Assembly (NCBI RefSeq): GCF_028641065.1
Contig: NC_073384.1
Location: 49,662,001-49,726,000 of the forward strand
From: Leucoraja erinacea
Lineage: Eukaryota
Length of the DNA: 64,000 bases
Direction: 5' to 3'
Shown here: positions 3,920 to 54,465 of the stretch, piece after piece
Layout: the number at the start of each line of letters is the position of its first letter
How positions within the stretch are numbered: the first letter of the stretch is position 1
Notes under the pieces: generated by a model
Database searches by the model: none
Told to the model about the DNA's origin: nothing
What the model saw: only the letters and a program-made list of their open reading frames with translations
Position numbers and translations under genes: made by a program

Positions 3920-5025
3920 AGTGATTCTACGTTTCTTGTTCGAAGTGTACCATTGCCCTATCCCCAAACTCTACCTCCGCTACATCAACGACAGCATTGG
4001 TGCTACCTCCTGCACCCATACAGAACTCACTGACTTCATCCATTTCACCACTAACTTCCATCTGGCACTCAAATACATCTACTATAAACCCAATGACTCC
4101 CATGGCTATCTGGACTACACTTCTTCCCACCCTGCTTCCTGTAAGGATTCCATCCCCTACTAATTCCTCCGTTTATGCCGCTCTGCACCCAGGATGCATC
4201 GGAGATGTCCTCATTCTTTAGGGAACGGGGGTTCCCCTATTAGACTATAGATGAGGCTCTCACCAGGGTCTCTTCTATACCACGTAACTCTGCTCTCACT
4301 CCCAATCCCTTCACTCTTAACAAGGGCAGAGTCCCCCTTGTCCTCACCTTTCACCCTACCAGCCGTCACACACAACAAATAATCCTCCAACATTTTCGCC
4401 ACCTCCAATGGGATCCTACCACTGGCCGCATCTTCCAATCTCCTCCCATTTCGGCTTTCCACAGAGACCGCTCCGTCCCTAACTCCCTGGTCAATTCGTC
4501 CCTTCCCACCAAAATCATCCCCTCCCCTGGCACTTTCCCTTGCAACCGCAGGAAAAGCTACACTTGTCACTTTACCTCCCACCTTGACTCCATTCAAGGA
4601 CCCAAGCAGTCTTTCCAGGTGCGGCAGAGGTTCACCTGCACCTCCTCCAACCTCATCTATTGCATCCGCTGCTCTAGATGTCAGCTGCTCTACATCGGTG
4701 AGACCAAGCGTAGGCTTGGCGATCGCTTCGCCCAACACCTCCGCTCGGTTCGCATTAACCAACCTGATCTCCTGGTGGCTCAGCGCTTCAACTCCGCCTC
4801 CCATTCCAAATCGGCCCTTTCTGTCCTGGGCCTCCTCCATGGCTAGAGTGAGGCCCACCGTAAATTGGAGGAGCAGCACCCCATATTTTGCTTGGGTAGT
4901 TTACACCCCAGCGGTATGATCATTGACTTCTCCAATTTTAGGTAGTCCCTGCTTTCTCCTTCTTTCCCCTCCCCTTCCCAGCTCTCCCACAGCCTACTGT
5001 CTCCGCCTCATCTTTTCTTCTTCTC

Positions 5026-5157: not shown

Positions 5158-6114
5158 AATGATTCTATGATGTCAGTTACAGCTCTTTCAAGCAGGTCTT
5201 TCAAGTCTTTTTACACACCACCAACCCAACAAAAGAAAAACTATGCATTAAAAAGGAACTGTAGGTCCTGCTTCATACCACAGACAGATACAAAATGCTG
5301 GAGTAACCGAGAGGGGTGGGAAGCATCTCTGGAGAAAATGGATAGGTGACCTATCGGATCGAGACCCTTCTTCTGACTCCTCAGTAGGAATGAGAGAAAA
5401 TTAGGTTGCATTGGATGAGGGGATATGGGCTGAGGCGGAGGAGGTTTAATTTAATTTAGTTTAGAAATATGGCATAGAAACTAAAGAGACTGAAGAAGAA
5501 TCATGGGGAAATATAAATCAAGATTGGATAATAAAATTATACAATTTTATGGATAGACATTAATACATATTTTTAGTTAACGTCAGAACCAAGCTTACAA
5601 ATTAAAAAATATTAATTACAAAACGGAACCATTTTAAAGCACTCAGTCAAAGTTTACAGTTGCATTAATGGTTTTTTGTTTAAACTCAAGAATGATCACT
5701 TGTAAACAATAAACAACACTGTGAGAACCAAGTTATCATTCAGACAAAATACTTAATGACTTAAATGAGTTCCACCATGTGAGCAACCGAAACAAAAGCA
5801 ATTAATTCTTTACCAAATAATTAAGTAAAATGATCAATATTCCTGTCACTGCCTCCACTATATGGCTTCTGAGAACTAATCAATTGTAACCAAAGATGTG
5901 ATTTGTGAATTCACATACTTTGAGTGGATGTCATCCCCTGCTTGAATACATGGTGCTATATTCTAAAATTGTCTGCATTCCTGTGACATGCAACCCACTT
6001 AATTCCTTATCATAGATCTAATCCTGCGATTCGTATTTATCAATGCAAGAACGATCAACTACCTTAGACCTTTTAATACAGCTACGTGACAGATATGACT
6101 TGCAAGCCAATATT

Positions 6115-6418
6115 AGAGCTTAGAGCATTTAGAGGAACAGTGTGGAAACAGGCCAGGAGGCCAACTGAGTCCACCGACCATCGATCACCCATACACTGAT
6201 TCTATGTTTTTCCAGTCACATCCTACAAACTAGGTTTTACAGAAGCCAAACCTGCATGTGTTTGTAATGTGGGAAGAAACCAGAGTACCTGGAGAGAACC
6301 CACGCAGTCACAAGGAGAATGCACAAACTTTGCACAGACAGCACCCATAGTCCGTATCGTACCCGTGTCTCTGGCGCTGTGAGGCAGCAGCTCTACCGCT
6401 GCACCACTGTGCTGCCAC
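6115..6418 (-). mobile_element. HE1-like tRNA-derived V-SINE
   Basis: A/B-box head at about 6350-6418, V-domain tgctgtctgtgcaaagtttgtgcattctcc and a CR1-like tail. Confidence 0.75.
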
Positions 6419-6584
6419 GCTGTGCTGTTTTCTGTACTATATTGATAACAGTAAGGCAACAAAAAGGATAAAATCCCCACATTCTATTTCTTTTTAGTTC
6501 ATTCACGAGCCTCCTTTAAATATCTGAAACATTCAATAATAGCCAGTTTGCTGCAACAATGTTGCCACCATAACAATACTGATC

Positions 6585-9500
6585 ATTTTACTTCGGAGTC
6601 ACGTGAGTGACTACGTGAAAGAAACCCGCTACGACGCATGCGTGTCATATCGCATACACGCATTGAACGAGTCAGACATGGGAGAGGACGTCTCCCTAGA
6701 GGGAAATGCAAAGAAGCAGGTAAGAGACTGCAAATTTTTTCCCACTTACCTTGCAGGTAGGAAAGGCAAGAAGCTGCAGGAGCTGGAGGGGAGAACTGCG
6801 GAAACAGCGCAGCCAGCAGCCAGCAGCAGCCGATGCGCGAATCCTCCGGAGAGGATTCCTAAACGGCTATTTTTAGCAGCAGAACAGCTGTGCCCGACGT
6901 CGCTCCCCGCACCGGCAAGATTGACTGCTGCGGGGCGGGAAGCGAAGCAACACGTCCCGGGGGTTTTTCAGACTAAGCAGTCTATGTTGGATGCAGTCGC
7001 TAGCGGCTCTGGTGCCGATTTGAAGCGGCTGCGGGACCCGGAAGAGAGAGAGCCGACATCTGGGACAGCAGCCCAAGGACCTGCGCTACGGGGTCTGTGG
7101 GGCTGCGGGAGGAAGGACGTTCCTCCCAAACGGCAGGCTGAAAACCAGTACAGGTAAGAACAAATTTCACTTACCTTTGGTTCTTTTTTCCAGAGTTTGC
7201 TGCTGTATTCTAAAGAGCAGCAGGCAGCCAGCTAAGGATGTCAGGGCAGAGCCACAGGTCGTTACTGCTGTGTTCTCAACAGCAGGCAGCCAGCTACTGA
7301 TGTCAGTATAGAGCTGAAGTGCTGCCACACAGAGTTTTGCTGCTGTTTAATGACCAGCAGCAGGCAGCAATGAATGTCGGCACCAGCATCTCCCATAAGG
7401 GAGCGAGTGCCAAACTTCACCCTAAATGGGTAGAGGTGCCCGTGAGTACCAGGACCATGGGAAGTGCCCGTAGGCATGGGGACCGGCTGCGGGAAATACC
7501 GCGTGCGACTAGTGCCAGAGAGCACCAAGGTCGGCAGGAGCGGTCCCATATATTAAAGCACCCGCGACGACTAGTGCCCGAGAGCATGTAAGTCGGCTGG
7601 AGCGGTTGCTGGAGGAAATTTCTCCACAGTGGCAGGCTCCGGGATTGGAGGAAAGCCACAGTGGGCAAATAAATATAAGTCCCACAGCAGTTTCCCATAA
7701 GGGCTGCATGAAATGTCAGACGCCTCTGAGGAGGGTATGGAAGGTCTGACGGGGTAAAATCTGAGCAGGTGAACAACCTGCTGAACATGATGAGCCAGTG
7801 CTGCCAGCAGAAACACACTGAGAATGATCTTGAGAAGGTGGCTGTGAGTATTGAAGGACTGTGAGTCCACCCACCAACTTCAAGCTAAATATTTTGGCTG
7901 AAGTGTTGGCAAAGCTTTTTTACCCCGGGATATTGTGGTGCTCTTAATGTAGCCATTGTTACAGATGCATTTGCAGACATGTTGGGAAGGCCGTTAGGAG
8001 TCGGGATATTAAAAATCCGTAATACTCTGAAAGGTCTCATGGCGGGCATAACAGCTTTGGCCCGCATGTTAAAAAAGGTGGAAAATTAGTAACCACAAGG
8101 ATGCCATTAGCACTAATTTTTGCGATGTGCAGTTTGAAGGGCCATTCAGCCAGCTCTAGACCCAAGTTCGCTATACTATGTAAGCAAAGGGCTATAGACC
8201 CCGTTATTTGGGGGGGGGAGGACCTGTCCAAACAGGTAAAAGAATTGGCGAGGAGGCTCGACTTTGGGGCTGATTAAAGCATCCAAAGGATATCTGGGGA
8301 AGACATTAACCTTATGTGCATCCTAAGAGAGGTAGTGTTTTTGTATTTATACTACAAAGAATTGGGCAGAGGTACCCAGCAGCAGCGTCCTGTTTAGGGT
8401 TTGGCCCGGGACGACCACTGTGGAAGATGCAAAAGTCTACGTCAGCATCTACCCTAACATTAACCTTTAGGCTCTCCACAACCGCGTATGAAACCAAGAA
8501 AAATAACTTGGTTACCACCAATAACCATGGAGGTAGGTGAATTTGGGGCTCCAGCATTATAAGGGAGCACGGAAGTTGGAGGGACATTGAAACTTCATGT
8601 TGAAGCTTGGTGTATATATCTATGGACAGATACATCCTTAGCAGTTTTAAGGGATATCTGATAGAGTTTCTACTCAAACAAAACTCTCCAGTACAACATA
8701 AACCGGTCAGATATACATGCTGGTAATGGAATAAACCAAACCTGAACAACAGGATTTGTCTCAAACATCTTTATTAGAAATAAGAAAGATGGGGGTTGCC
8801 GTATTATTATGGATTATCAATGCTTCACAATGTTGTGCAATATTCATTTTAAAGATGGATACTTTTAGCAGTGCTAAAGACTTAGTTTTCAGCAGGCTAC
8901 TGTATGGCAAGTATTAATCTTTAAGATCCTTGCTATTCAATATACAACAGGGGGGAAAAATGTTAAACCAGTGTTGGGACTGCTGCAACACCAAAAACCA
9001 TAGAGTAATGGTATAGTTGGATGATATCCTTATTGTAGGAATAACTTATGAATCGGCATGTTAGGCAGTGGTTGCCACTAAACAATTGTTTGAACAGCTG
9101 GGATTCATTGTCCATCCACTTAAGTCAAAATTGACACCATTAACACATTTAATATGTTAATGACTTTACTAATATGGAAAGCCACAGAGTTCAATGGGCT
9201 CATAATTATAGAGGTCATTTATTTTGGCCAATGGAGCTAATGATAGAAGCTATAAAAGAATTACAATGTTGGGAATACAATGTTAAGTATTGCTCCAAAC
9301 CCAATAGTTATTCACAACCCGTCTGTGCTATTACAAACAGATGCCAGTGCATTTGGTTACGGTACAACTGATACCATCTCGAGCTACGGGGGAGATGAAA
9401 TATATAAGAAGCTAACCTACATAACACTAAGGGTTAGAAATGTTAAGTGCATTTCATGGGCTAAACATTTATTGCTCAGGAATGAAACTGCAGCATGTTA

Positions 9501-11586
9501 GATGGTAGATAGATAATACCTCGGTGATGGCATATATAAGTCATATGGGTGGAAAGATATCAAAATCTTGTGATGAATTGGCAAATTCAATTTGGCAATG
9601 GTGTGTCCAAAGGAATATTTGGTTATCGGCTACGTATCTACCAGGGATACTAATTCAGTGGCAGACACCAGGTCACGAAAATTTATTGAAAGTACTGAAT
9701 GGATGTTGGATAGAACGGTATTTGCTAAAATCAGTAAAGTAGGTAAGGCCGGATATTAGAATTGCATCCAGGGTTAAATCACCAGTTACCGAGGTATGTA
9801 TCATTGGTACCAGATCCTGAGGCAGAAGCTACAGATGCTGTTTCACTGCACTAGGGGAGGGTTTTCATTCATGTATTACCTCCTTTTTTCTACTTTATAA
9901 ATTTGGGGTACTAAGGGAAATTCAACAGGAATCGGCATCGCGGATGTCTTAGTACCTGATTGGCTTACCCAACTATGGTTTTCCGGGGTACAGGACATGG
10001 TGCTGGAACCATGTATAATGGTAAGACATAGTCCTAAGTTGCTAGTGCATCCAGTAACTGAGGATAGCTATCCATGTCATAGAAAATATTGATTTAGTAG
10101 GTTGTAGACTCTAAAACACCGCTACGGGACATGGGGCTATCATAAGAACTGTGGACATGATCACAGCAGCACGAAGAAGGTCTACACAATAACAGTATTT
10201 AGGTCATATTAAAATGGACTAATTACTGCCATAATAACTTTCTGGACCACAGAAATAAGGATGTTCCGGTGGTGCTAGAGTTTCTCACCAGCCTGCAATA
10301 TGGAGGACTGAGTTTCAGCACTGTGAATAGTGCCAAAAGTGCATTGTCAAGGTATTGGTGGCAAGGAACAGTAAGACAGTCTGTGGGATCACATCCTCTG
10401 GCAGTTAAAAATTTTAGAGGATATGTTAACACCAAGCCACCAAAAATAAGATACAACTATATCTGGAATGTAAGTGTGGCTTTGACCTTGCTAAGGAATT
10501 GGTCGTGGGCTACAGCATTAAATCTGGATAACTAACTAGAAATGGTAATGCTGATGGCGCTAGTCACAGCGCATAAGCTCCAGTTATTGCTAAAAGTAAG
10601 ACTGGATGGCTTCACTATTGCGGCACGAAGTTTGGGGTTTGTGATCCAGGACCGTATTATTAAACAAAATAGGCCAGGATCAGCGGGGCAGGTCATAGAA
10701 TTGATGGCCTACCCGGAGGACAAACGCCTCGGTATAGTGAAGCACGTTTTTTGTTATACAGTGAAAGTACAAAGGCTATCAGAGGCAAGGAATTGGCGTT
10801 TAATCAGCTATAAGAAACTGTACCATAGAGTGTAACTCAGACCATTTTGCGGTGGCTGAAATATGGGTTATGATAGGCGGGAGTGAACAATAACATATTT
10901 AATTATCACTCCACCAGGGCTGCAGCTACATCCGCAGCAAAACGCCTTGATGTATCCATGGACCATATCCTCAGGATTGCAGGATGGTTGTCGGAGAAAA
11001 CGTTTCAGAAATGTTATAACAAACCAGTTAGCAGTATGGGAACGTTTTTCGGGGAACATTTTAAGTTCTGTATGATAATTTATCCCTGAAGAATACAGGG
11101 TTATGATTTGAATTAATTCGATATTATTTATCATTTCCATTAAATAATTGGTATGAATGTTTTGAATATAATTAACAATTTCTCCCTAACTACCAAGGCA
11201 GTTGTGAAGCATGGACTCGTTTCCACGGCATGAGGTCACAGAGCTTTGAAATCTTTCACGTAGTCACTCACGTGACTCCGAAGTAAAATAGTAAGATTAA
11301 ACGAGAACTTACCAGTTTGAAGTTTGATCTTTATTTTATGAGGAGGAACGTTGAGGGAATACGTGCCCTCCGCTCCCACCCTCGAATGGTCATATCTTAA
11401 ACTGGTATCTCTTTAATAATCTTACTATTTTAGGTCATTATAGTGTATCTGTGACCTCACACCGCTGCTTTGAAGGATGACACGCATGCGTCGTAGCGGG
11501 TTTCTTTCACGTATTCCCTCAACGTTCCTCCTCATAAAATAAAGATCAAACTTCAAACTGGTAAGTTCTCGTTTAATCTTACTATT
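6585..11586 (+). mobile_element. DIRS1-type tyrosine-recombinase retrotransposon with intact termini and decayed ORFs
   Basis: Perfect 37-bp inverted repeat (6612-6648 vs 11477-11513). ICR 11252-11365 is complementary to both extreme ends. Frameshifted RT (LDDILIVG at about 9017), RNase H (LQTDASAFGYG; MAYISHMGG...IWQWC...ATYLPG), methyltransferase-like remnant and tyrosine recombinase (HSTRAAATS...AGW...TFQKCY). Confidence 0.92.
10130..11040 (+). pseudogene. Disrupted tyrosine recombinase of the DIRS element
   Basis: Fragments VLEFLTSL...STVNSAKSALS, LMALVTAHK and HSTRAAATSAA...ILRIAGWLSEKTFQKCYNKP are separated by stops and frameshifts. Confidence 0.85.
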
Positions 11587-12784
11587 ATCCTTTTCTTCAT
11601 GGTATGCGAAACACATTAATTTCTAAATTTAAACAATCAAATATTTTCCAAAAGATTTTTGTATTTAAGAAACAAATCGTTCAATAATAATTCAAACATA
11701 AGAATGGCTTCAAAATCTGATGACTCTTGCACGCGATCTCAGTGGACTATTTCCATACACTTTGTACTAATCGTGCAAAGATTGGTATCTTTGACACAAT
11801 CAAAGATACCTAAGATTGTGCTTGCGTTTGGCAATACTTTACTGAACTGTATGCAAAAAAGGAATGTCACTGTACATCTGTACATGGTAATAAAGAACCA
11901 CTGACTATTGAGACATTTCAGAAGATGAAAATCTGAAATAGAGACAAAAATACACAGTAAATCCGGCAGCATCAGTGAAAGGACAAATTATGTTATCATT
12001 TCAGATAATTGGCCTTTCATCATTTACCAGCATGGAAGAAAACCTACGATAAATAACTCTTTATGGCACTGAAATTCTTTCATCAATTCACATGTAAAGT
12101 CATCAAGCTGAAACAACTCTCTTTTTCACTCCATAGTGCTCCATGACACTAAGTATTTCTATTCATTTGCTTTTACAAAAGATTATGCAGTCTTTTTCAC
12201 CCCAAAAGACACGACAAACTGATAATTGCATTGAACTATTAACGATTCGGCAAGAATGGCAGGAGTGTGGTAAATAAAGCTAATTAATTTGGCTTCTTCA
12301 ATTTCTACGTCATATTGAAGGGTACGTAAAGGAAGGTCATTAAACATGCACATATCCATCACTTACTGAAATAAATGCTTCACATAGCCAGCTTTGGATA
12401 AAGAGTTTAGCCTCAAAGATGGATGATTTAATAAGGAAGGTTTACTATTGAGAAACTCAGAGGTCAGTTTACTAGCTTGCATGAATGAAAACCACACTAT
12501 GAAGAATGTTTGTTATATGGCAGTTGACAATTGAACAAATTACATTTTCTGCACAGTGACTTTGTCCTCTCTTGTTTCTGACCCAGTGATGTAAGTGCGA
12601 GATATTACCAATTGACTAGCATTGGACAGATGCATTATGCTCAAGTTAAGCACAAGAATTTGTCCATTAGTTTTGTTGGCATTTTTAAACAATTTCCTCA
12701 TTTTGTTGTGTACTTCAGTAGAAACTATTTAAAAAAAAAAAAGATTCTGCAGCCATAAATGCAGTCAAGAACTGCCTCGTAAAG

Positions 12785-19500: not shown

Positions 19501-21057
19501 AGCAAGCGGTTAAAGAAATACTTGGTGATTTTCGTGAAGGTACGTCCCATGAAAAAATACAAATGTCATAGGAAATATGTTACATGCATAACTAAGGTTA
19601 TGGATAGTATTCAATTAAACACGAGAAATATAATGCATAAAGATTAAGGAGTAGTGGAGGCCAAAAAGTGAAAGAGAAAGAGAAATATATTCATCTACAA
19701 AATATATCACACGCTCTTCTAAATACAGAACTTTAATGAGTGTTAAGTTAATGTGAGTCCTTTGTAGACAAAAAGGGGGAATTAAAAAAGTATCAGAAAA
19801 AAGCTGAGACATAAACAAATCTGTATCTTGTAATTATCTTGTATCCTCCTTCTAAATTTAAGACATAGCAGTGAAAGAGCCAAATTAGAGTTAACGTTTT
19901 GTTAAATAATTACCTAAGAAAAGGCACAAGATAAGTAAGCCAATTGCATTCAACATCTTAGATCTTTCTCTTCTGAAAGAGTTGACTACAGAGAAAGTGG
20001 ATGTATTAATAGTGACCTTTAAATCTTCCTATTTATTTTAAATATTAATACACAGAATTGGGAGTAACCCAGGAAGTAATTTGGTGAGAATTTCCTGCAT
20101 TACTCTTTGACAAATATTTCCTTTTTCATTTACGGAGACTAAATCTACAGTGTGCTTAATGTGATTCTCGCCAAGGCCCTCCCTTATGTACTTAGAGATC
20201 TTCAGTCTTGTTGAAACAAATAACTGCAGATGCTGGATTAATACATAAAAGGACACAAAGTGCTGGAATAAATCAGCAGGTCGGGCAGCATCTCTGGAGA
20301 ACATGGATAGGCGCCATTTCAAGTTGAGACCCTTCCTCAGAGTGATTGTGGGGGGATGGGAGGAGGAGAAGAAAGCTGGAAAAGGAAAGAGGCAGGGCTT
20401 GTAGAGAAGTTTATTAACAGTATAGACAAAAAATGCTGGAGTAACTCAGTGGGTCAGAGAGCATCTCTGGAGAGAAGGAATGGGTGACATTTCACATTGA
20501 GCCCGTTCTTCAGATTAGTCAGGGGAAAGGGAAATGAAAGATATAGACAGTGATGTTGAGAGATATGGAACAAATGAATGAAAGATATGCAAAAAAGTAA
20601 CGATAATATAGGAATCAGGCCATTGACAGACAGTCTTATTACAAAGGTCAACATACCATTCACATTTGTACTGTCTGCTACAACTCCATGTTAGTTTTCA
20701 GTAACATAAACAAGAACACCAAGATCCCTTTGAATATCAATATTTTCCAATCATGCATCTCTCAAAAAATAATTAAAAATGTATTTTTCTCTTGCCAAGT
20801 TTTTTTTCATGTTGGACTCCATTGCTTTGTTGACAGCCACTTATTTATCTTGATATATCCTCTTCAAGCCTCTTTGCATCATCAAAACCATTCATCTCCC
20901 CAATACCAAGGACAAATTTGGGAAGGGTACTATTGGATTTCAGGGCCAAACCATCTCTATAGACTTGATCAATCTGAAGAAGTGTCTCAACCTGAAACGT
21001 CATCCATTCCTTCTCTCCAGAGATGCTACCTGTTCCGTTGAGTTACTCCAACATTTT

Positions 21058-22027
21058 GTGTGCTCAGCCCCCTGCTGTACTCACTCTATACTCATGACTG
21101 CGTAGCCTGTCACAGTGCGAACTCCATCATCAAGTTCGCTGATGACACCACTGTTGTGGGACGTATCACTGATGGGGATGAGTCAGAGTATAAAAGAGAG
21201 ATCGAGCAACTGGCCATATGCTGCCAGCGCAATAACCTGGCCCTCAACACCAGCAAAACCAAGGAACTGATTGTGGACTTTGGAAGGAGTAGGAGGGGGA
21301 CCCACAGCCCCATTTATATCAACGGGTCAGTGGTTGAAAGGGTCAAGAGCTCCAAATTCCTGGGCGTGCACATCTCTGAAGATCTTTCCTGGTCCGAGAA
21401 CACTAATGCAATTATCAAGAAAGCTCATCAGCGCCTCTACTTCCTGAGAAGATTACGGAGAGTCGGTTTGTCAAGGATGACTCTCTCTAACTTCTACAGG
21501 TGCATAGTCGAGAGCATGCTGAACGGTTGCATCGTGGCTTGGTTCGGCAATCTGAGCGCCCTGGAGAGGAAAAGACTACAAAAAGTAGTAAACACTGCCC
21601 AGTCCATCATCGGCTCTGACCTTCCTTCCATCGAGGGGATTTATCGCAGTTGCTGCCTCAAAAAGGCAGGCAGTATCATCAAAGACCCACACCATCCTGC
21701 CCACACACTCATCTCCCTGCTACCTTCAGGTAGAAGGTACAGGAGCCTGAAGACTGCAACAACCAGGTTCGGGAAATAGCTACTTCCCCACAGCCATCAG
21801 GCTATTAAACCTGGCTTGGACAAAACTCTGATTATTAATAACCCATTATCTGTTATTTGCACTTTATCAGTTTATTTATTCATGTGTGTATATATTTATA
21901 TTATGGTATATGGACACACTTATCTGTTTTGTAGTAAATCCCTACTATGTTCTGTGTGCTGAAGCAAAGCAAGAATTTCATTGTCCTATACAGGGACACA
22001 TGACAATACACTCACTTGAACTTGAAC
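21058..22027 (+). mobile_element. 5'-truncated Rex1/Babar LINE inserted into a Penelope-derived short repeat
   Basis: [16 protein letters not shown]...KFADDTTVVG...LLPSGRRYRS with an (acttga)n tail. The host repeat resumes at about 22028 (tatctttg...gcatctgcagttcc). Confidence 0.9.
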
Positions 22028-25884: not shown

Positions 25885-27243
25885 AGGTGGATCCTATTTC
25901 CATTGATTATCCTTGAGATGTTTCTACAACTTGATTGGAGTCCACCAGTGGTAAATTAAATTGATTGGACATGATTTGGAAAGGCACACACCTGTCTATA
26001 TAAGGTCCCACAGTTGGCAGTGCATGTCAGAGCAAAAACCAAGCCATGGAGAAAAAAGGAATTGTCTGTAGACCTCTGAGACAGGATTGTGGTGAGACCC
26101 AGATCTGGGGAAGGGTATGAAATAATTTCTGCAGCATTGCAGATCCCGAAGAGCACAGTGGCCTCCATCATTCTTAAATGGAAGAATTTTGGAACCACCA
26201 GGACTCTTCATAAAGCTGGCCGCCAGGCCAAACTGAGCCATCGGGGTAGAAGGGCCTTGGACAGGGAGGTGACCAAGAACCCAATGGTCACTCCGACAGA
26301 GCACCAGAGTTCCTTTGTGGAGATGGGAGAACCTTCCAGAAGGACAACTATATCTGCAGCACTCCACCCATCAGGCCTTTATGATAGAGTGGCCAGACAG
26401 AAGCCACTCCTCAGTAAAAGGCACAAGACAGCCTGCTTGGAGTTTGCCAAAAGGCACCTAAATGACTCTCAGACCATGGGAAACAAGATTCTCTGGTCTG
26501 ATGAAACCAAGATTGAACTCTTTGGCCTGAATGCCAAGCGTCATGTCTGGAGGAAACCAGGCATAGCTCATCACCTGTCCAATACCATACCTACGGTGAA
26601 GCAGGATGGTGGCAGCATCATGCTGTGGGGATGTTTCTCAAAGGCAGGAACTGGAGACTAGTCAGGATCGAGGGAAAGATGAACGGAAGAAAGTACAGAG
26701 AGATCCTTGATGAAAACCTGCTCCAGAGCATTCTGGGCCTCAGATTGGGGTGGAGGTTCACCTTCGAACACGACAACGACCCTAAGCACACAGCCAAGAC
26801 AATGCAGGAGTGGCTTCATGACAAGTCCTCGAATGTCCCAGCCAGAGCCCGGACTTGAACCCGATCGAACATCTCAGGAGGGACCTGAAAATAGCTGTGC
26901 ATCGACGCTCCCCATCCATCCTGACAGAGCTTGAGAGGATCTGCAGTGAAGAATGGGAGCAATTACTCAAATACAGGTGTGCCAAGCTTGTAGCGTCATA
27001 CCCAAGAAGACTTGAGGCTGTAATCGCTGCCAAAGCTGCCTCAACAAAGTACTGAGTAAAGGGTCTGAATACTTATGTAAATGTGATATTTCAGTTATTT
27101 CTTTTTAAATACTTAACAAAAATTTCTAAACACCTGTTTTTGCTTTTTATTATGGGGTATTGTATGTAGATTGATGATAAAAACAAGTAGTAACAGAAGG
27201 TGGAAAAAGTGACGGGGTCTGAATACTTTCTGAATGCACTGTA
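25885..27243 (+). mobile_element. Tc1-family transposon relic (Passport/Eagle-Glan-like) with a frameshifted transposase at about 26046-27055
   Basis: WSDETKIELFG, HDNDPKHTAK and SPDLNPIEHL motifs and a C-terminal AAKAASTKY. The right end cactg|ta has inner and outer DRs (gggtctgaatactt at about 27061 and 27215). The left outer end is missing. Confidence 0.9.
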
Positions 27244-27817: not shown

Positions 27818-29858
27818 ATCATCCCTGCAGCTTAACAGGCATCTTTTGTCGTCTATACTGTTCGAACAAAGGATATTTAACCTAATACTTTGACTCTTAT
27901 TCTCTTCACACAGGCAATGGCCTGACCTGCTGAGTAATTTGAGCATTTTCTGTTTTTATAATATATGATTGTGGAAATGCTACTTTATAGAGATGTCAAC
28001 AATTAAGTTCTCCCACTATTTAGATTTCTAATGCACAATAGGTTGTTTTAAGGAAGGGAGAAAATTACCAAGCCATTTTGTTTACTGAGTACCATGTTTA
28101 CATATCTCTTTTGCTGCTGCAAGGAAGAATTTCATATTTCTGTTTCTGACATACGACAATAATACTATTTTGAGCAGATTCTTGTAGCAGAGGAAAGCTC
28201 TCTCTGAGAGTCAAAATGGTGAGGTTGCTCAGGCCACAGCAACCTGCTTCCAGTGTGAAAATCTTCAATTTTTCACACCAATTAAACCACAGCTTCTTAG
28301 TGAACAACTTCAGTGGTAAATTAGAGTTAGCTTTATAATTAGAAACTGGGTGAACATTATCTAAATTCAAAATAAATGAACAGCGGTAGGCTGTACAATT
28401 GAATTGCCATTTAAAAAACAATATAGGTACATCAGTGGCATCTTCCTTCTTGGCCAGGACGGCTGTCCAGTTCTATTGTGGAAACAAGGAACAGATGCTG
28501 GTTTACACAAAAGGACACAAAATGCTGGTGTATCTCAGAAAGTCAGGCAGCATCCCTGGAGATCATGGATAGGTGACAAGAGAGGCATAAAGGAGGCCAA
28601 GGTGGTCTACAACAGGAGGATTGAGGACCACCTGTCACACAACGATCCACGGAGAGTGTGGCAAGGGTTACAGCACATAACCAACTATAAAGGCAGTACC
28701 AACAGCACTGTAAATACCGACGCGGAGGAGCTTAACCGTTTCTTCGGCCGGTTTGAGGTTAACAGGCCAGCTACAGGCTCACTGCCTCCACCCGCCTCTA
28801 ACACCCACACACTCACACTACAGGAACAGGATGTGAGGCGTGTGCTGAGGTCAGTAAATCCAATTAAGGCTGCTGAACCTGATGCAGTACCCAGTAAAGT
28901 ACTCCAGGCATGTGCTGACCAACTCGCTGGGGTCTTCACAAGGATTATTAACATCTCCCTGTCACAAGCTATCATACCACCCTGCTTATAGTCAGCCACA
29001 ATCATTCCTATTCCCAAAAAAAAACAGTCCCTGAGGACCTGAATGACTATAGACCGAGTGCACTTACACCAGAGATTATGAAGTGCTTCGAGAAACTAGT
29101 CCTGCATCACATCAGAACCAGCCTACCTCTCTCCTTCGACCCACATCAGTTTGCATATAGAGATAACAGATTCACTGAGGACGCCATCGCCATAGCAACT
29201 CACACTGCACTGACCCACTTGGAACATCGGGAAAGCTACGTGAGGATGTTATTCATTGATTATCGCTCAGCATTCAATACAATCATTTTAATCAGCAAAC
29301 TGCTTGACCTAGGCCTCTCCTCGCCCATCTGCACATGGATCCAAGACTTTCTCACAAACCGCCCACAGAGAGTTAAAACCGGCCCCCACATCTCCTCCTC
29401 TTTCACACTAAGCACTGGTGCACCTCAAGGCTGTGTGCTGAGTCCACTCCTCTACTCCTTATACACCTATGACTGTACACCTGCCCACCCTTCCAACACG
29501 ATTATTAGAAACATAGAAAATAGGTGCAGGAGGAGGCCATACGGGCCTTCGAGTCAGCACCGCCATTCATTGTGATAATGGCTGATCGTCCCCTATCAAT
29601 AACCCATACCTGCCTTCTCCCCATATCCCTTGACTCCACTAGCCCCTAGAGCTCTATCTAACTCTCTCTTAAATCCATCCAGTGACTTGGTCTCCATTGC
29701 CGTCTGTGGCAGGGAATTCCATAAATTCCCAACTCTCTGGGTGAAATGTTTTTTACTCACCTCAGTCTTAAATGACCTCCCCTTTATTCTAAGACTGTGG
29801 CCCCTGGTTCTGGACTCGCCCAAAATTGGGTACATTTTTCCTGCATCTAGCTTGTCCA

Positions 29859-30623
29859 AGTCAAGTCAAGTCAAGTCAAGTTTATTTGTCACATACACAT
29901 ACGAGATGTGCAGTGAAATGAAAGTGGCAATGCTCGCGGACTTTTGTGCAAAAGACAAACAACAAAACAACCAAACAAATTATAAACACAATCATAACAC
30001 ACATATTCTTTTACATAATAAATAATGGAAGGAAAAACGTTCTGTATAGTTAGTCCCTGGTGAGATAGGCGTTTACAGTCCGAATTGCCTCTGGGAAGAA
30101 ACTCCTTCTCAACCTCTCCGTTCTCACCGCATGGCAACGGAGGCGTTTGCCTGACCGTAGCAGCTGGAACAGTCCGTTGCAGGGGTGGAATGGGTCTCTC
30201 ATGATTTTGTTTGCTCTGGAGTTGCACCTCCTGTTGTATAGTTCCTGCAGGGGGGTGAGTGAAGTTCCCATAGTGCGTTCGGCCGAACGCACTACTCTCT
30301 GCAGAGCCTTCTTGTCCTTGGCAGAGCAATTCCCAAACCAGATGGTAATGTTCCCGGACAAGATGCTTTCCACCGCCGCTGCGTAGAAGCACTGGAGGAT
30401 CCTCGGAGACACTCTGAATTTCCTCAATTGCCTGAGGTGGTAAAGGCGCTGCCTTGCCTTACTCACGAGTGCTGAGGCGTGTGATGCCCATGTCACATCC
30501 TCGGAGATGTGGACTCCCAGATATTTAAAACAGTTCACCCTATCCACAGGATCCCCATTTATCCTCAATGGAGTGTGCGTCCTCGTATGATGTGCCCTCC
30601 TAAAGTCCATGATCAGCTCCTTC
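29859..30623 (-). mobile_element. Young 5'-truncated Rex1/Babar LINE nested in the CR1
   Basis: Uninterrupted 186-aa ORF FKYLGVHISED...RSFFPEAIRTVN and an (acttg)n tail. TSD gtcca at 29854-29858 and 30624-30628. Confidence 0.9.
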
Positions 30624-32229
30624 GTCCAGTCCTTTTATAATTTTATATGTTTCTATGAGATCCCCCTCATCCTTCTAAACTCCAGTGAATACAAGCCTAG
30701 TCTTTTCAATCTTTCCTCATATGACAGTCCGGCCATCCCAAGGATCAATCTCGTGAACTTACGCTGCACTGCCTCAATCACAAGGATGTCCTTCCTCAAA
30801 TTAGAAGACCAAAACTGTACACAATACTCCAGTTGTGGTCTCACCAGAGCCCTATACAACTGCTGAAGAACCTCTTTACTCCTATACTAAAATCCTCTTG
30901 TTATGAAGGCCAACATTCCATTAGCTTTCATCACTGCCTGCTGTACCTGCACGCCAACTTTCTGTGACTGGTGTACAATGGTATCCAGGTCTCGCTGCAC
31001 CTCCCCCTTACCTAACCTAACCCCATTGAGATAATAATCTGCCCCCTTGTTTTTTCCGCCAAAGTGGATAACCTCACATTTGCCATGCATCTGTCCACTC
31101 ACTCAACCTGTCCAGGTCACCCTGCAACCTCCTAACATCCTCTTCACAGTTCACAATGCCACCCAGCTTTGTGTCATCCACAAACGTGCTAGTGTTGCTC
31201 CTAATTCCCTCTTCCAAATCATTAATATATATGGTAAACAGTTGCGGCCCCAACACCGAGCTTGCGGCACTCCACTCGCCACTTCCTGCCATTCTGAAAA
31301 GGACCCAGTCACTCCTACTATTTGCTCTCTCTTCTGCCAACCAATTTTCTATCCATGTCAACACCCTACCCCCAATACCATGTGTTCTAATTTTAGTCAC
31401 CAGTCTCCTGTGCGGGACCTTATCAAAGGCTTTCTGAAAGTCTAGATACACTACATCCACTGGCACCTCTTCATCCATTTTACTTGTCACATCCTCAAAA
31501 AATTCCAGAAGATTAGTCAAGCATGATTTCCTTTTCATAAATCCATGTTGACTTGGACTAATCCTTTTACTGCTATCCAAATGCCCCATTATTACTTCTT
31601 TAATAATTGAATCCAGCATCTTTCCCACCACCGAAGTCATGCTAACTTGTCTGTAATTCCCCGTTTTCTCTCTCACTCCTTTCTTGAAAAGTGGGATAAC
31701 ATTAGCTATCCTCCAATCCACAGGAACTGACCCTGAATCTATTGAACATTGGAAAATGATCACCAATGCGTCCACTATTTCTAGAGCCACCTCCCTGAGG
31801 ACCCTGAGATGCAGACCATCAGGCCCAGGGGTTTTATCATCCTTCAACCCCATTAGCCTACCCAATTATATTTCTCGCCGAATGAAAATTTCTTTCAGTT
31901 CCTCTACCCCCTTAGATCCTCTGTCTTCCAGTACATCTGGGAGATTGTTTGTGTCTTCCTTAGTGAAGACAGATCCGAAGTACCTAATCAACTCTTCTGC
32001 CATTTCCTTGTTGCCCATAATAATTTCACCCGTGTCTGCCTTCAAGGGACCCACATTTGACTTTGCTATTCCTTTTCCCTTAACATATCAAAATAAGTTT
32101 TTACTGTCCTTCTTTATATTCCTGGCCAGCTTCCCTTCGTACTTCATCTTTTCAGCCCGTTTTGTTTCCTTCTGTTGTCCTATGAAAGTTCCCCAATCCT
32201 CTGGCTTCCGGCTACTCTTTGCTGTGTTA

Positions 32230-51869: not shown

Positions 51870-54465
51870 AATGGATCTACATCAATGATTTGGATGAGAA
51901 TATACAGGGCAAGATTTGCAAGTATGCTGATGATACAAAAGTTAGTGGTTTTGCATAGTGAAGATGGTTGTGAATGATTGCACCAGGATCTGGATCAATT
52001 AGCCAGGTGGGCGGAGGAATGGTTGATGGAATTTAAAACAGAGAAGTGTGAGGTGTTGCATTTTGGTACGTCGAACCAAGGCAGGACCTACACAGTAAAT
52101 GGTAGGCCTCTGGGTAGTGTTGTAGAGCAGTGGGATTGAGGAGTACAGGTGCATGGGTCCTTAAAGGTCGAGTTGCAGGTAGATAAGGTGGTCTATTTAA
52201 GGTAATTTAGAAACAGGTGAATTTATTACAGGGAACAAGGAAATGGCAGATGAGTTGAACAGGTACTTTGGATCTGTCTTCACTAAGGAAGACATAAACA
52301 ATCTTCCTGATGTACTAGTGGCCAGAGGATCTGGGGTGACGGAGGAACTGAAGGAAATCCACATCAGGCTTGAAATGGTGTTGGGTAAACTGATGGGACT
52401 GAAGGCTGATAAATGCCCAGGGCCTGATGGTCTGCATCCCAGGTACTTAAGGAAGTGGCTCTAGAAATTGTGGACACATTGGACGTCATTTTCCAATGTT
52501 CTAGAGTTTCAGGATCATTTCCTGTGGATTGGAGGGTAGCTAATGTTATCCCACTTTTTGGTAAAGGCGGGAGAGAGAAAACAGGGAATTATAGACCAGT
52601 CAGCCTGACATCGGTGGAGGGGAAGATGCTGGAGTCAATCATCAATGACGAAATAGCAGCATATTTAGATAGCAGTAACAGGATTGGTCCGAGTCAGCAT
52701 GGATTTACGAAGGGGAAATGTTTGACTAATCTTTTGGAATTTTTTGAGGATGTAACTGGGAAAATGGACAAGGGAGAGCCAGTGAATGTAGTGTATCTGG
52801 ACTTTCAGAAAGCATTCGATAAGGTCCCACATAGGAAAATAGTGGGCAATATTAGGGCACATGGTATTGTGGGTAGAGTGCTGACATGGATAGAAAATTG
52901 GTTGGCAAACAGGAAACAAAGAGTAGGGATTAACAGGTCCCTTTCAGAATGGCAGGTACTGACTAGTGGGATATCGCAAGGCTCGGTGCTGGGACCACAG
53001 CTAATTACAATATATATTAATGATTCTGATGAATGGATTACAAGTAACATTAGCAAATTTGCACATGACACAAAGCTGGGTGGCAGTGTGAACCATGATG
53101 AGGATGCTATGAGAATGCAGGGTGACTTGGACAGGTTGGGTGCATGGGCAGATGCATGGCAGATGCAGTTTAATGTGGATAAATGTGAGGTTATCTACTT
53201 TGGTAACAAAAACAGGAAGGCAGATTATTATCTAAATGGTGTCAAGTTGGGAAAAGGGGAAGTACAACGGGATCTGGGGGTCTTTTGTTCATCAGTCAAT
53301 GAAAGTAAGCATGCAGGTACAGCAGGCAGTGAAGAAAGCGAATGGCATTTAGCCTTCATAACAAGAGGAGTTGAGTATAGGAGCAAAGAGGTCCTTCTGC
53401 AGTTGTACAGGGCCCTAGTGAGACCACACCTGGAGTATTTTGTGCAGTTTTGGTCTCCAAATTTGAGGAAGGACATTGTTGTTATTGAGTGGGTGCAGCG
53501 TAGGTTCACACGGTTAATTCCTGGGATGGCGGGACTGTCATATGCTAAGAGAATGGAGCTGCTGGGCTTGTACACCCTGGAATTTAGGATGAGAGGGGAT
53601 CTTATTGAAACATATAAGATTATTAAGGGTTTGGACACATGTTCCCGATGTTGGGGGAGTCCAGAACCAGGGGCCACTGTTTAAGAATAAGGGGTAAGCC
53701 ATTTAGAACGGAGATGAGGAAACACTTTTTCACACAGAGGGTTGTGAGTTGGAATTCGCTGCCTCAGATGGCGGTGGACCGCTGGATATTTAGAGCTAGA
53801 TAGGGCTCTTGTTCAGATATCTGAGGGCAGACACGGGGTGTTATTGGGGAATCAGCCATGATCATAGTCAAGCGGTGCTGGCTCGAAGGGCCAAATGGAC
53901 TCCTCACCCAGAAGATTGTCAACAAGGCTTTTGGCACTTTGCGCTTCATCGGAGTATTGAGTATAGAAGTGGTAGGTCTGAGCTATAGGGAGACCGGAAT
54001 ATTGTGAGTCTGGGCACCAGGCTGGGATATAGTCAAGCTGGATGGATTCTTGGAGCGCAGGATGTTGAAGGAGGAGGGTGAGCTTATAGGTTGAGTATGG
54101 GTATTCCTTGGAAAGGATCATGAGAGAAATGTATATAAAATCATGAGATAGATCGGGTAGATGCATAGAATCTCTTGCCCAGAGTAGGGGAATCACGGAC
54201 CAGAGGAGATAGGTTCAAGGTGAAGGTGAAAGATTTAATAGGAACCCTTTTCACACAAAGGGTGGTGTGAGTGTGGAACAAGCTGCCAGAGGAGGCTGGG
54301 ACTATCCCATCGTTTAAGAAACAGTTAGAAAGGTACATGGATAGGGCAGGTTTGAAGAGATATGGACCAAGCGCAGGCAAGTGGGACTAGTGTAGCTGGG
54401 ACATTGTTGGCCGGCATGGGCGAGTTGGGCCGAAGGGGCTGTTTCCACACTGTATCACTTCATGA
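51870..54465 (+). mobile_element. CR1 cluster: a younger CR1 (about 52205-53905, ORF remnants 52243-53684) flanked by pieces of a second CR1 subfamily
   Basis: YLDFQKAFDKVPH, QGSVLGPQL and FAHDTKL motifs. The outer pieces carry YADDTK (about 51925) and the gggccgaagggg.ctgtttcc tail shared with the SINEs. Confidence 0.85.

Follow-up and report, generated by a model that had tools for sequence, protein, structure and literature searches.

A DIRS1-type retrotransposon lineage without working genes in Leucoraja erinacea, probably spread by the proteins of intact relatives with the same ends

The replication model of DIRS retrotransposons dates from the 1980s and has had one direct experimental test. 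In the accessible text of Piednoel et al. 2011 (PMC3266345), DIRS1-like elements are defined through inverted terminal repeats (ITRs) plus two internal complementary region (ICR) halves that overlap on a 3-bp junction, and AcaDIRS1/2 and SkoDIRS1 have ATT...ATT ends and an AAT junction. In DIRS-1 of Dictyostelium the ICR is essential and the reverse transcriptase (RT) acts in trans, trans action of the other proteins being left open in the portions available of that study (Malicki et al. 2020, PMC7192593). As far as the respective excerpts go, wheat non-autonomous RLC_Angela (Copia) elements are full-size and >85% identical to autonomous partners, with degenerate coding regions, monophyletic bodies and terminal repeats that cluster with different autonomous partners, i.e. 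host switches (PMC9744471); non-autonomous pararetroviruses exchange non-coding regions (PMC5491270); and TOC1 of Chlamydomonas is an active nonautonomous DIRS retrotransposon (bioRxiv 10.1101/2022.06.16.496473). Here we describe a 5,002-bp non-autonomous DIRS1-type retrotransposon at 6585..11586, on the plus strand of a 64,000-nucleotide stretch of Leucoraja erinacea DNA (NC_073384.1, positions 49,662,001 to 49,726,000; hereafter the window). It belongs to a full-length lineage that lost its genes long ago and that likely spreads via the proteins of intact subfamilies with the same ends, a reading to which we give a probability of roughly 0.85.

The first and last letters of the element are ATT, and its boundaries are those at which dispersed copies with unrelated flanks show the identical two ends. 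Three complementary pairs reported in the initial annotation (37, 38 and 79 bp) were recovered at the same positions with no mismatch. The conserved part of the left ITR (6612..6648) pairs with that of the right ITR (11477..11513) at 37/37 positions, the left terminus (6585..6622) complements the left ICR half (11252-11289) at 38/38, and the right terminus (11508..11586), consisting of the divergent ITR part and the right extension, complements the right ICR half (11287-11365) at 79/79. Self-BLAST gave E values of 3e-13 and 2e-35 for the two ICR pairs and 7e-15 for the extended ITR match. Within the ICR (11252..11365) the halves overlap at AAT (11287-11289), the circle junction, and the reverse complement of 11252-11365 is the right end plus the left end joined via one ATT, every letter identical. 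The terminal ATT lies at 11584..11586, and the empty site has a single ATT between the flanks. Copies of the window type carry a lineage-private extra A in the left ITR, the ICR and the right ITR alike. Inverted terminal repeats and two ICR halves overlapping on a 3-bp junction, the defining features of DIRS1-like elements, are thus both present. No split direct repeats of the PAT/Ngaro type link the ends and the ICR, which are joined by inverted pairs only; the element does not fit the PAT/Ngaro type of tyrosine recombinase (YR) element.

Across pol and recombinase the window copy carries 46 frameshifts and stops relative to L056, an intact relative to which it is about 89% identical there. 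When the 2.19-Gb genome was searched with the whole element, 28 scored candidates gave 153 matches, among them full-span copies on many contigs that are 94-98% identical. The core set comprised 34 full-span dead copies: 21 left after 9 truncated, interrupted or split loci were dropped, and 13/20 from a second search, whose remaining 7/20 loci did not have both ends in the stretch taken. From a further search came 13 dead copies of greater divergence, together with 2 intermediates and 2 copies of the parent type (2/20 loci lacked both ends, and L129 duplicates L090). In all, 47 distinct full-span dead copies out of at least 149 were analysed, and neither these nor a set of 30 loci contained a long plus-strand pol or recombinase open reading frame (ORF).

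The lesions are largely shared. Among the 46 in the window copy, 27 recur in at least 30 of the 33 other dead copies, 17 in 2-27 copies and 2 are private; the 27 core lesions are wholly absent from 31 of 32 intact-type copies compared, the last having 1 of them. A 57-bp pol deletion, with its junction at 8710..8732, marks the dead lineage, being present in 20/20 dead copies and 0/16 intact-type copies. A 23-nt pattern across this junction has 149 exact matches genome-wide (control, 0), and the undeleted form has 118 at ≤1 mismatch, with a pattern that covers the nearest intact-type groups only. The flanks of the copies are unrelated and begin exactly at the ATT ends. The damage is inherited, i.e. 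neither private nor due to sequencing errors, as the initial annotation had allowed it might be, and the lesions predate amplification; the near-identical copies with common disabling mutations that it had predicted do exist.

A search with a recombinase fragment revealed a second group with open frames of 323-336 aa. L056, whose ends are those of the dead lineage, contains three open frames (505, 700 and 323 aa). Altogether 12 such three-ORF elements with the same ends were found (also L095, L096, L099, L101, L106, L107, L109, L131, L134, L135 and L137), falling into subfamilies labelled A, O, P and Q, and 28/65 pol matches are near full length and stop-free. P is a multi-copy subfamily with intact members, and its body is about 12% from that of group C; the last 335 bp of 5 of 7 new P members are 2-4 letters from those of the dead copy L015. 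An intact-ORF partner with the same termini had been forecast, and together with the common lesions these 12 elements support the earlier proposal that a dead lineage is copied in trans by an active DIRS partner. As a separate observation, a 26-nt right-terminal motif occurs 11,057 times exactly in the genome, often as opposed pairs ~270-280 bp apart (ICR plus right end), which suggests several thousand elements with the same ends, far beyond the subfamilies studied here.

The coding region of the dead branch decays neutrally. On the stem leading to the dead lineage, changes number 43/40/28 at codon positions 1/2/3 and divide into 18 synonymous, 84 non-synonymous and 9 stop, compared with 46:20 synonymous to non-synonymous on an intact-type branch (Fisher p 1e-12). 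Dead bodies differ from the nearest parent-type copy by 5.7-10.4%. Against parent group C, the ends show 0 fixed differences at 352 gap-free terminal sites, a count that omits sites beside small ITR indels, and the coding region shows 139/2,131 (p 6e-10). Dispersed, partly dead intermediates carry 2, 4, 6, 19 and 19 of the 27 core lesions, further dispersed intermediates carry 21-25, and one more decayed sub-lineage has about 60 lesions, as would fit damage that built up step by step while the lineage went on replicating.

The best-surviving alternative is that one copy decayed in place over a long period and was later multiplied in a single helper-driven burst, with no continuous parasitic copying. 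It would account for the long stem (about 6% in pol and recombinase) relative to the short tips (median 0.27%), and the share of CpG transitions is not significantly lower on the stem (6/111) than among private changes (22/199; p 0.10), so that the spectrum is no proof of decay during replication. The dispersed copies with partial core lesion sets and the sub-lineage with about 60 lesions speak against it, however, as do ends that stayed unchanged while the body decayed. Stem changes are also strand-asymmetric, T>G outnumbering A>C by 18 to 7 (p 0.008) and A>T outnumbering T>A by 17 to 4 (p 0.03; both post hoc and uncorrected), which lends weak support to decay during copying. Overall we regard a single late burst as improbable, and prefer continued copying of an already dead lineage.

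The initial annotation argued from the matching ends that the window insertion is young. Perfect ends are found in 9/34 dead copies and 4/33 intact-type copies, making that argument weak, and the totals of terminal mismatches (dead, 56 in 34 copies; intact-type, 81 in 33 copies) suggest overlapping activity. The 0 mismatches in 154 terminal pairs of the window copy bound post-insertion change at ~1% per site. Its 23 private substitutions (0.46%) exceed the family median, marking it as an ordinary member and not the youngest.

Youth is better supported by the empty site than by perfect ends. In each of X3, X5 and X10, three related organisms with flank differences of about 1.7, 2.7 and 3.8%, a single contig runs from 6584 to 11584 unbroken; an insertion common to distant species, which would have spoken against a young insertion, was not found in these three relatives. 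In X1 (organism A, flanks ~0.6% different), one contig stops at 6587 and another begins at 11584, preceded by 27 unaligned letters, with no single contig spanning the site. X1 likely lacks the insertion, which fits an empty allele but does not establish within-species polymorphism. The remodelled 5' region of the dead lineage is present at high summed depth in X1 and X3, so the lineage is likely older than the window insertion.

Integration is the recombinase-type insertion of the DIRS model. Among 84 elements, ATT comes first in 79 and last in 78, ends having been located with mismatch-tolerant motifs, which favours ATT. The two flank letters after ATT are H in 83/84 and T in 74/84, mimicking the start of the element itself. 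In many cases host repeats are restored when the flanks are joined through one ATT (L087, 98.6%; L095, 95.8%), and empty sites hold one ATT, the identical 3-bp target. A second element start directly adjoins the right flank of L066 and the left flank of L012, which suggests insertion into the end of another copy or a tandem product.

Variation at the termini bears on how the ends are maintained. Across the 84 elements, ITR variants changed both arms in 351 cells and were mismatched in 78, and left end/ICR variants gave 84 both-arm and 36 mismatched cells, counting copies and not events. All 47 dead bodies are nearest to group C, and their ends are nearest to A or C (inseparable) in 27, B in 12 and P in 8. 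In the B-ended group, informative sites are C-type through L056 position 4755 and B-type at 15/15 from 4783, at the ICR; on the left, 6/6 sites of the end are B-type, and the sequence returns to the dead type past the ITR. A switch just upstream of the ICR that alters both ends agrees with the prediction of the ICR model. The partial swaps of L122 and L123 also follow the model: the ICR is B-type and the right ITR of the window type, and in their left ends the part that pairs with the ICR is B-type and the part that pairs with the ITR is of the window type. Individual dead copies can be matched to individual B variants (L116 to L068; L111 and L114 to L067). The ends of the window copy are still of A/C type. 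The copy is also a mosaic put together from dead sub-lineages: one breakpoint falls between 7456 and 7607 (maximum chi-square 71, 0/2,000 permutations), and near 9900 its nearest relative changes a second time.

In our main reading, RNA of the dead lineage is likely packaged and reverse transcribed by helper Gag and RT, its ends would be rebuilt from the ICR and right ITR so that a 3'-end change is copied to the left end, and the helper tyrosine recombinase likely inserts the circle at an ATT-H-T target. Where dead and helper RNAs share one particle, RT would likely switch template just upstream of the ICR, giving the dead body the whole 3' cassette of the helper and, by end regeneration, then its left end. 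In this reading such capture happened at least twice, from subfamilies B and P. With moderate confidence we further favour a model in which a vertebrate DIRS parasite lineage changes helpers by capturing their 3' ICR cassette, one template switch re-branding both ends. If true, nature itself would have demonstrated by genetics the co-packaging of DIRS RNAs, the trans action of Gag, RT and recombinase alike, and the templating of the left end by the ICR and right ITR.

The same swaps and mosaics could have arisen, with trans-mobilisation still true, by ectopic gene conversion between integrated copies instead of template switching. Donors are abundant, given the copy number of the 26-nt terminal motif, and DNA data alone show no particles, so this possibility counts against our model. 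Yet the left end is altered in step with the 3' cassette and is of the dead type again after the ITR, which would need matched conversions 5 kb apart unless one 3' conversion preceded a replication round, and whole groups of dispersed copies have inherited the swaps. We judge conversion slightly less probable still than a single late burst. DNA duplication of a dead locus, or assembly and sequencing artefacts, with the ends matching by chance of youth, has nothing beyond general possibility in its favour and is refuted by copies on many contigs with unrelated flanks starting exactly at the ATT ends, joined flanks that restore host repeats around one ATT, lesions common in nested sets, and independent runs that hold the empty site, leaving it with a negligible share of our belief.

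Several observations weigh against helper-driven spread with end capture. We infer trans-mobilisation from sequence comparison and not from an assay. No element with all three ORFs intact appeared among the 3 B and 7 C elements sampled, each of which carries a few lesions, mostly private. For the helper of window-type copies, A and C are inseparable, and P-end capture rests on few sites, with a 7-letter margin over group C. The right end covaries weakly with the ICR, with 35 cells changed on both arms and 48 mismatched, in one column. The CpG share given above points the same way. Moreover, truncated DIRS-1 underwent reverse transcription in the assay, yet its cycle was not completed there, according to the parts of the Dictyostelium report at hand (PMC7192593).

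Length may be relevant here. Among the dead copies, 34/47 are 4.94-5.14 kb long, intact-type copies are mostly 5.0-5.1 kb and the most decayed sub-lineage is 4.4-4.9 kb; sampling favoured full-length copies, making a length constraint only a lead. A limit on size or packaging may lie behind the 5-kb length that was kept, and could explain the laboratory failure of truncated DIRS-1.

The coding remnants of the window copy are collinear with L056, and the ruined RT, RNase H, methyltransferase-like and recombinase frames of the initial annotation are all present as such. Pfam gave no credible match for 14 ORF fragments of the window, so domains were read via L056, whose ORFs match RVT_1 (E 1.2e-19), Phage_integrase (E 1.8e-6) and Dam (E 2e-4, below the curated cut-off). 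The putative gag remnant (6759..8506), which corresponds to the 505-aa frame of L056 and has many common frameshifts and stops, is assigned by position; Pfam found no match for that first ORF. The pol remnant (8353..10113) includes RT (about 8782-9141), whose YLDD motif has become stop-LDD (9014-9025), RNase H (about 9334-9675) and a methyltransferase-like domain (about 9691-9984). RNase H in L056 had no Pfam match and was located by what we take to be its D-E-D-D motifs. The tyrosine recombinase remnant (10108..11075) retains HSTR at 10907-10918, and AQRVQ of L056 has become AHKLQ at 10569-10583.

Upstream, a remodelled leader and 5' gag region (6696..7462) consists of a diverged gag start, a second leader-like module and short direct repeats. 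The gag start up to about 6950 is about 68% identical to intact copies, and the second module is common to the partly dead types L127, L125 and L063. The region has no credible Rfam match; its origin as wholly foreign DNA was considered and dropped, as one part resembles the intact gag start and another matches partly dead leaders. An Rfam scan of 6000-12200 for small nuclear RNA cargo gave 4 weak matches under the gathering score and none to U1, U2 or U5. Both leader modules (6716-6757 and 7151-7180) contain a splice-donor-like CAG/GTAAG with its complement CTTACCT ~20 nt later, a predicted hairpin that would mask the donor-like motif; intact copies have the motif without the complement. A G/GTAAGT at the right terminus is paired with the ICR. 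Direct repeats of 33-39 nt with 62-75 nt spacing lie at 7196-7368 and 7506-7606 in the remodelled gag region, the second pair being found in intact copies too. L063 (G000:C4:41895300-41905100), L127 and L125 are partly dead types with a different leader; the recombinase frame of L063 is open and its gag and pol are broken, and it is possibly a semi-autonomous stage.

From organism A, three raw RNA runs, sampled at 1-5% of each, yielded 289-461 aligned reads apiece. These cover the body thinly, lie on both strands and are mostly terminal reads continuing into other sequence. No RNA start or end sites and no circle joint were seen in these sampled portions. Just left of the element, at about 6150-6416, lies a very high-copy short repeat with the highest depth in the empty-site read data, which may resemble a cartilaginous-fish short interspersed element. 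The window appears repeat-dominated: its other ORFs (4244-4846, 21042-21779, 26080-26661, 28380-30634, 31074-31865 and 52428-53684) look by their motifs like a GIY-YIG nuclease, reverse transcriptases of long interspersed elements and a Tc1-type transposase.

The lineage provides evidence on the scale of a genome: without a working gene it has inserted at least 149 times, and its end swaps show a left end that follows the 3' cassette. For the curation of transposable elements, ruined ORFs beside matching DIRS ends are not necessarily the mark of an old copy, and a family label drawn from the ends can conflict with one drawn from the body. In the open literature searched we found no description of a coding-dead ITR/ICR-type DIRS lineage with end capture, a search that excludes Repbase, subscription journals and supplements, where curated non-autonomous DIRS entries may exist. 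TOC1 is not known to be a decayed copy of its helper. Du et al. in 2010 reportedly found swapping of long terminal repeats (LTRs) between autonomous and non-autonomous soybean elements.

Compared with these systems, insofar as the available text of each source allows, the element shares ITRs, ICR halves, the right extension and ATT ends with DIRS1-like elements, and its intact relatives share a putative gag, RT-RNase H-methyltransferase, YR, YLDD and HSTR with them; unlike them, the whole lineage is ORF-dead, and no non-autonomous partner is described in those sections (PMC3266345). Like Dictyostelium DIRS-1 it points to ICR-dependent end repair and RT in trans, whereas the lineage here implies trans action of all three proteins (PMC7192593). 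It resembles TOC1 as a non-autonomous tyrosine-recombinase retroelement (10.1101/2022.06.16.496473), but TOC elements are PAT-type with split direct repeats, not ITR/ICR (PMC3266345). As in pararetroviruses, plant elements of another class, the parasite keeps or changes its partner through region-specific recombination of cis signals (PMC5491270). The soybean elements, again a different class in plants, reportedly do likewise. RLC_Angela is the LTR precedent: full-size, coding-dead, with a single body lineage and the ends of different partners (PMC9744471). RLC_Angela is an LTR/integrase element, whereas here the unit exchanged is a 3' ICR-plus-ITR cassette of ~330 bp, and one crossover alters both ends. 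A lifestyle known from LTR elements such as RLC_Angela and from TOC1 is thereby extended to a vertebrate ITR/ICR-type DIRS.

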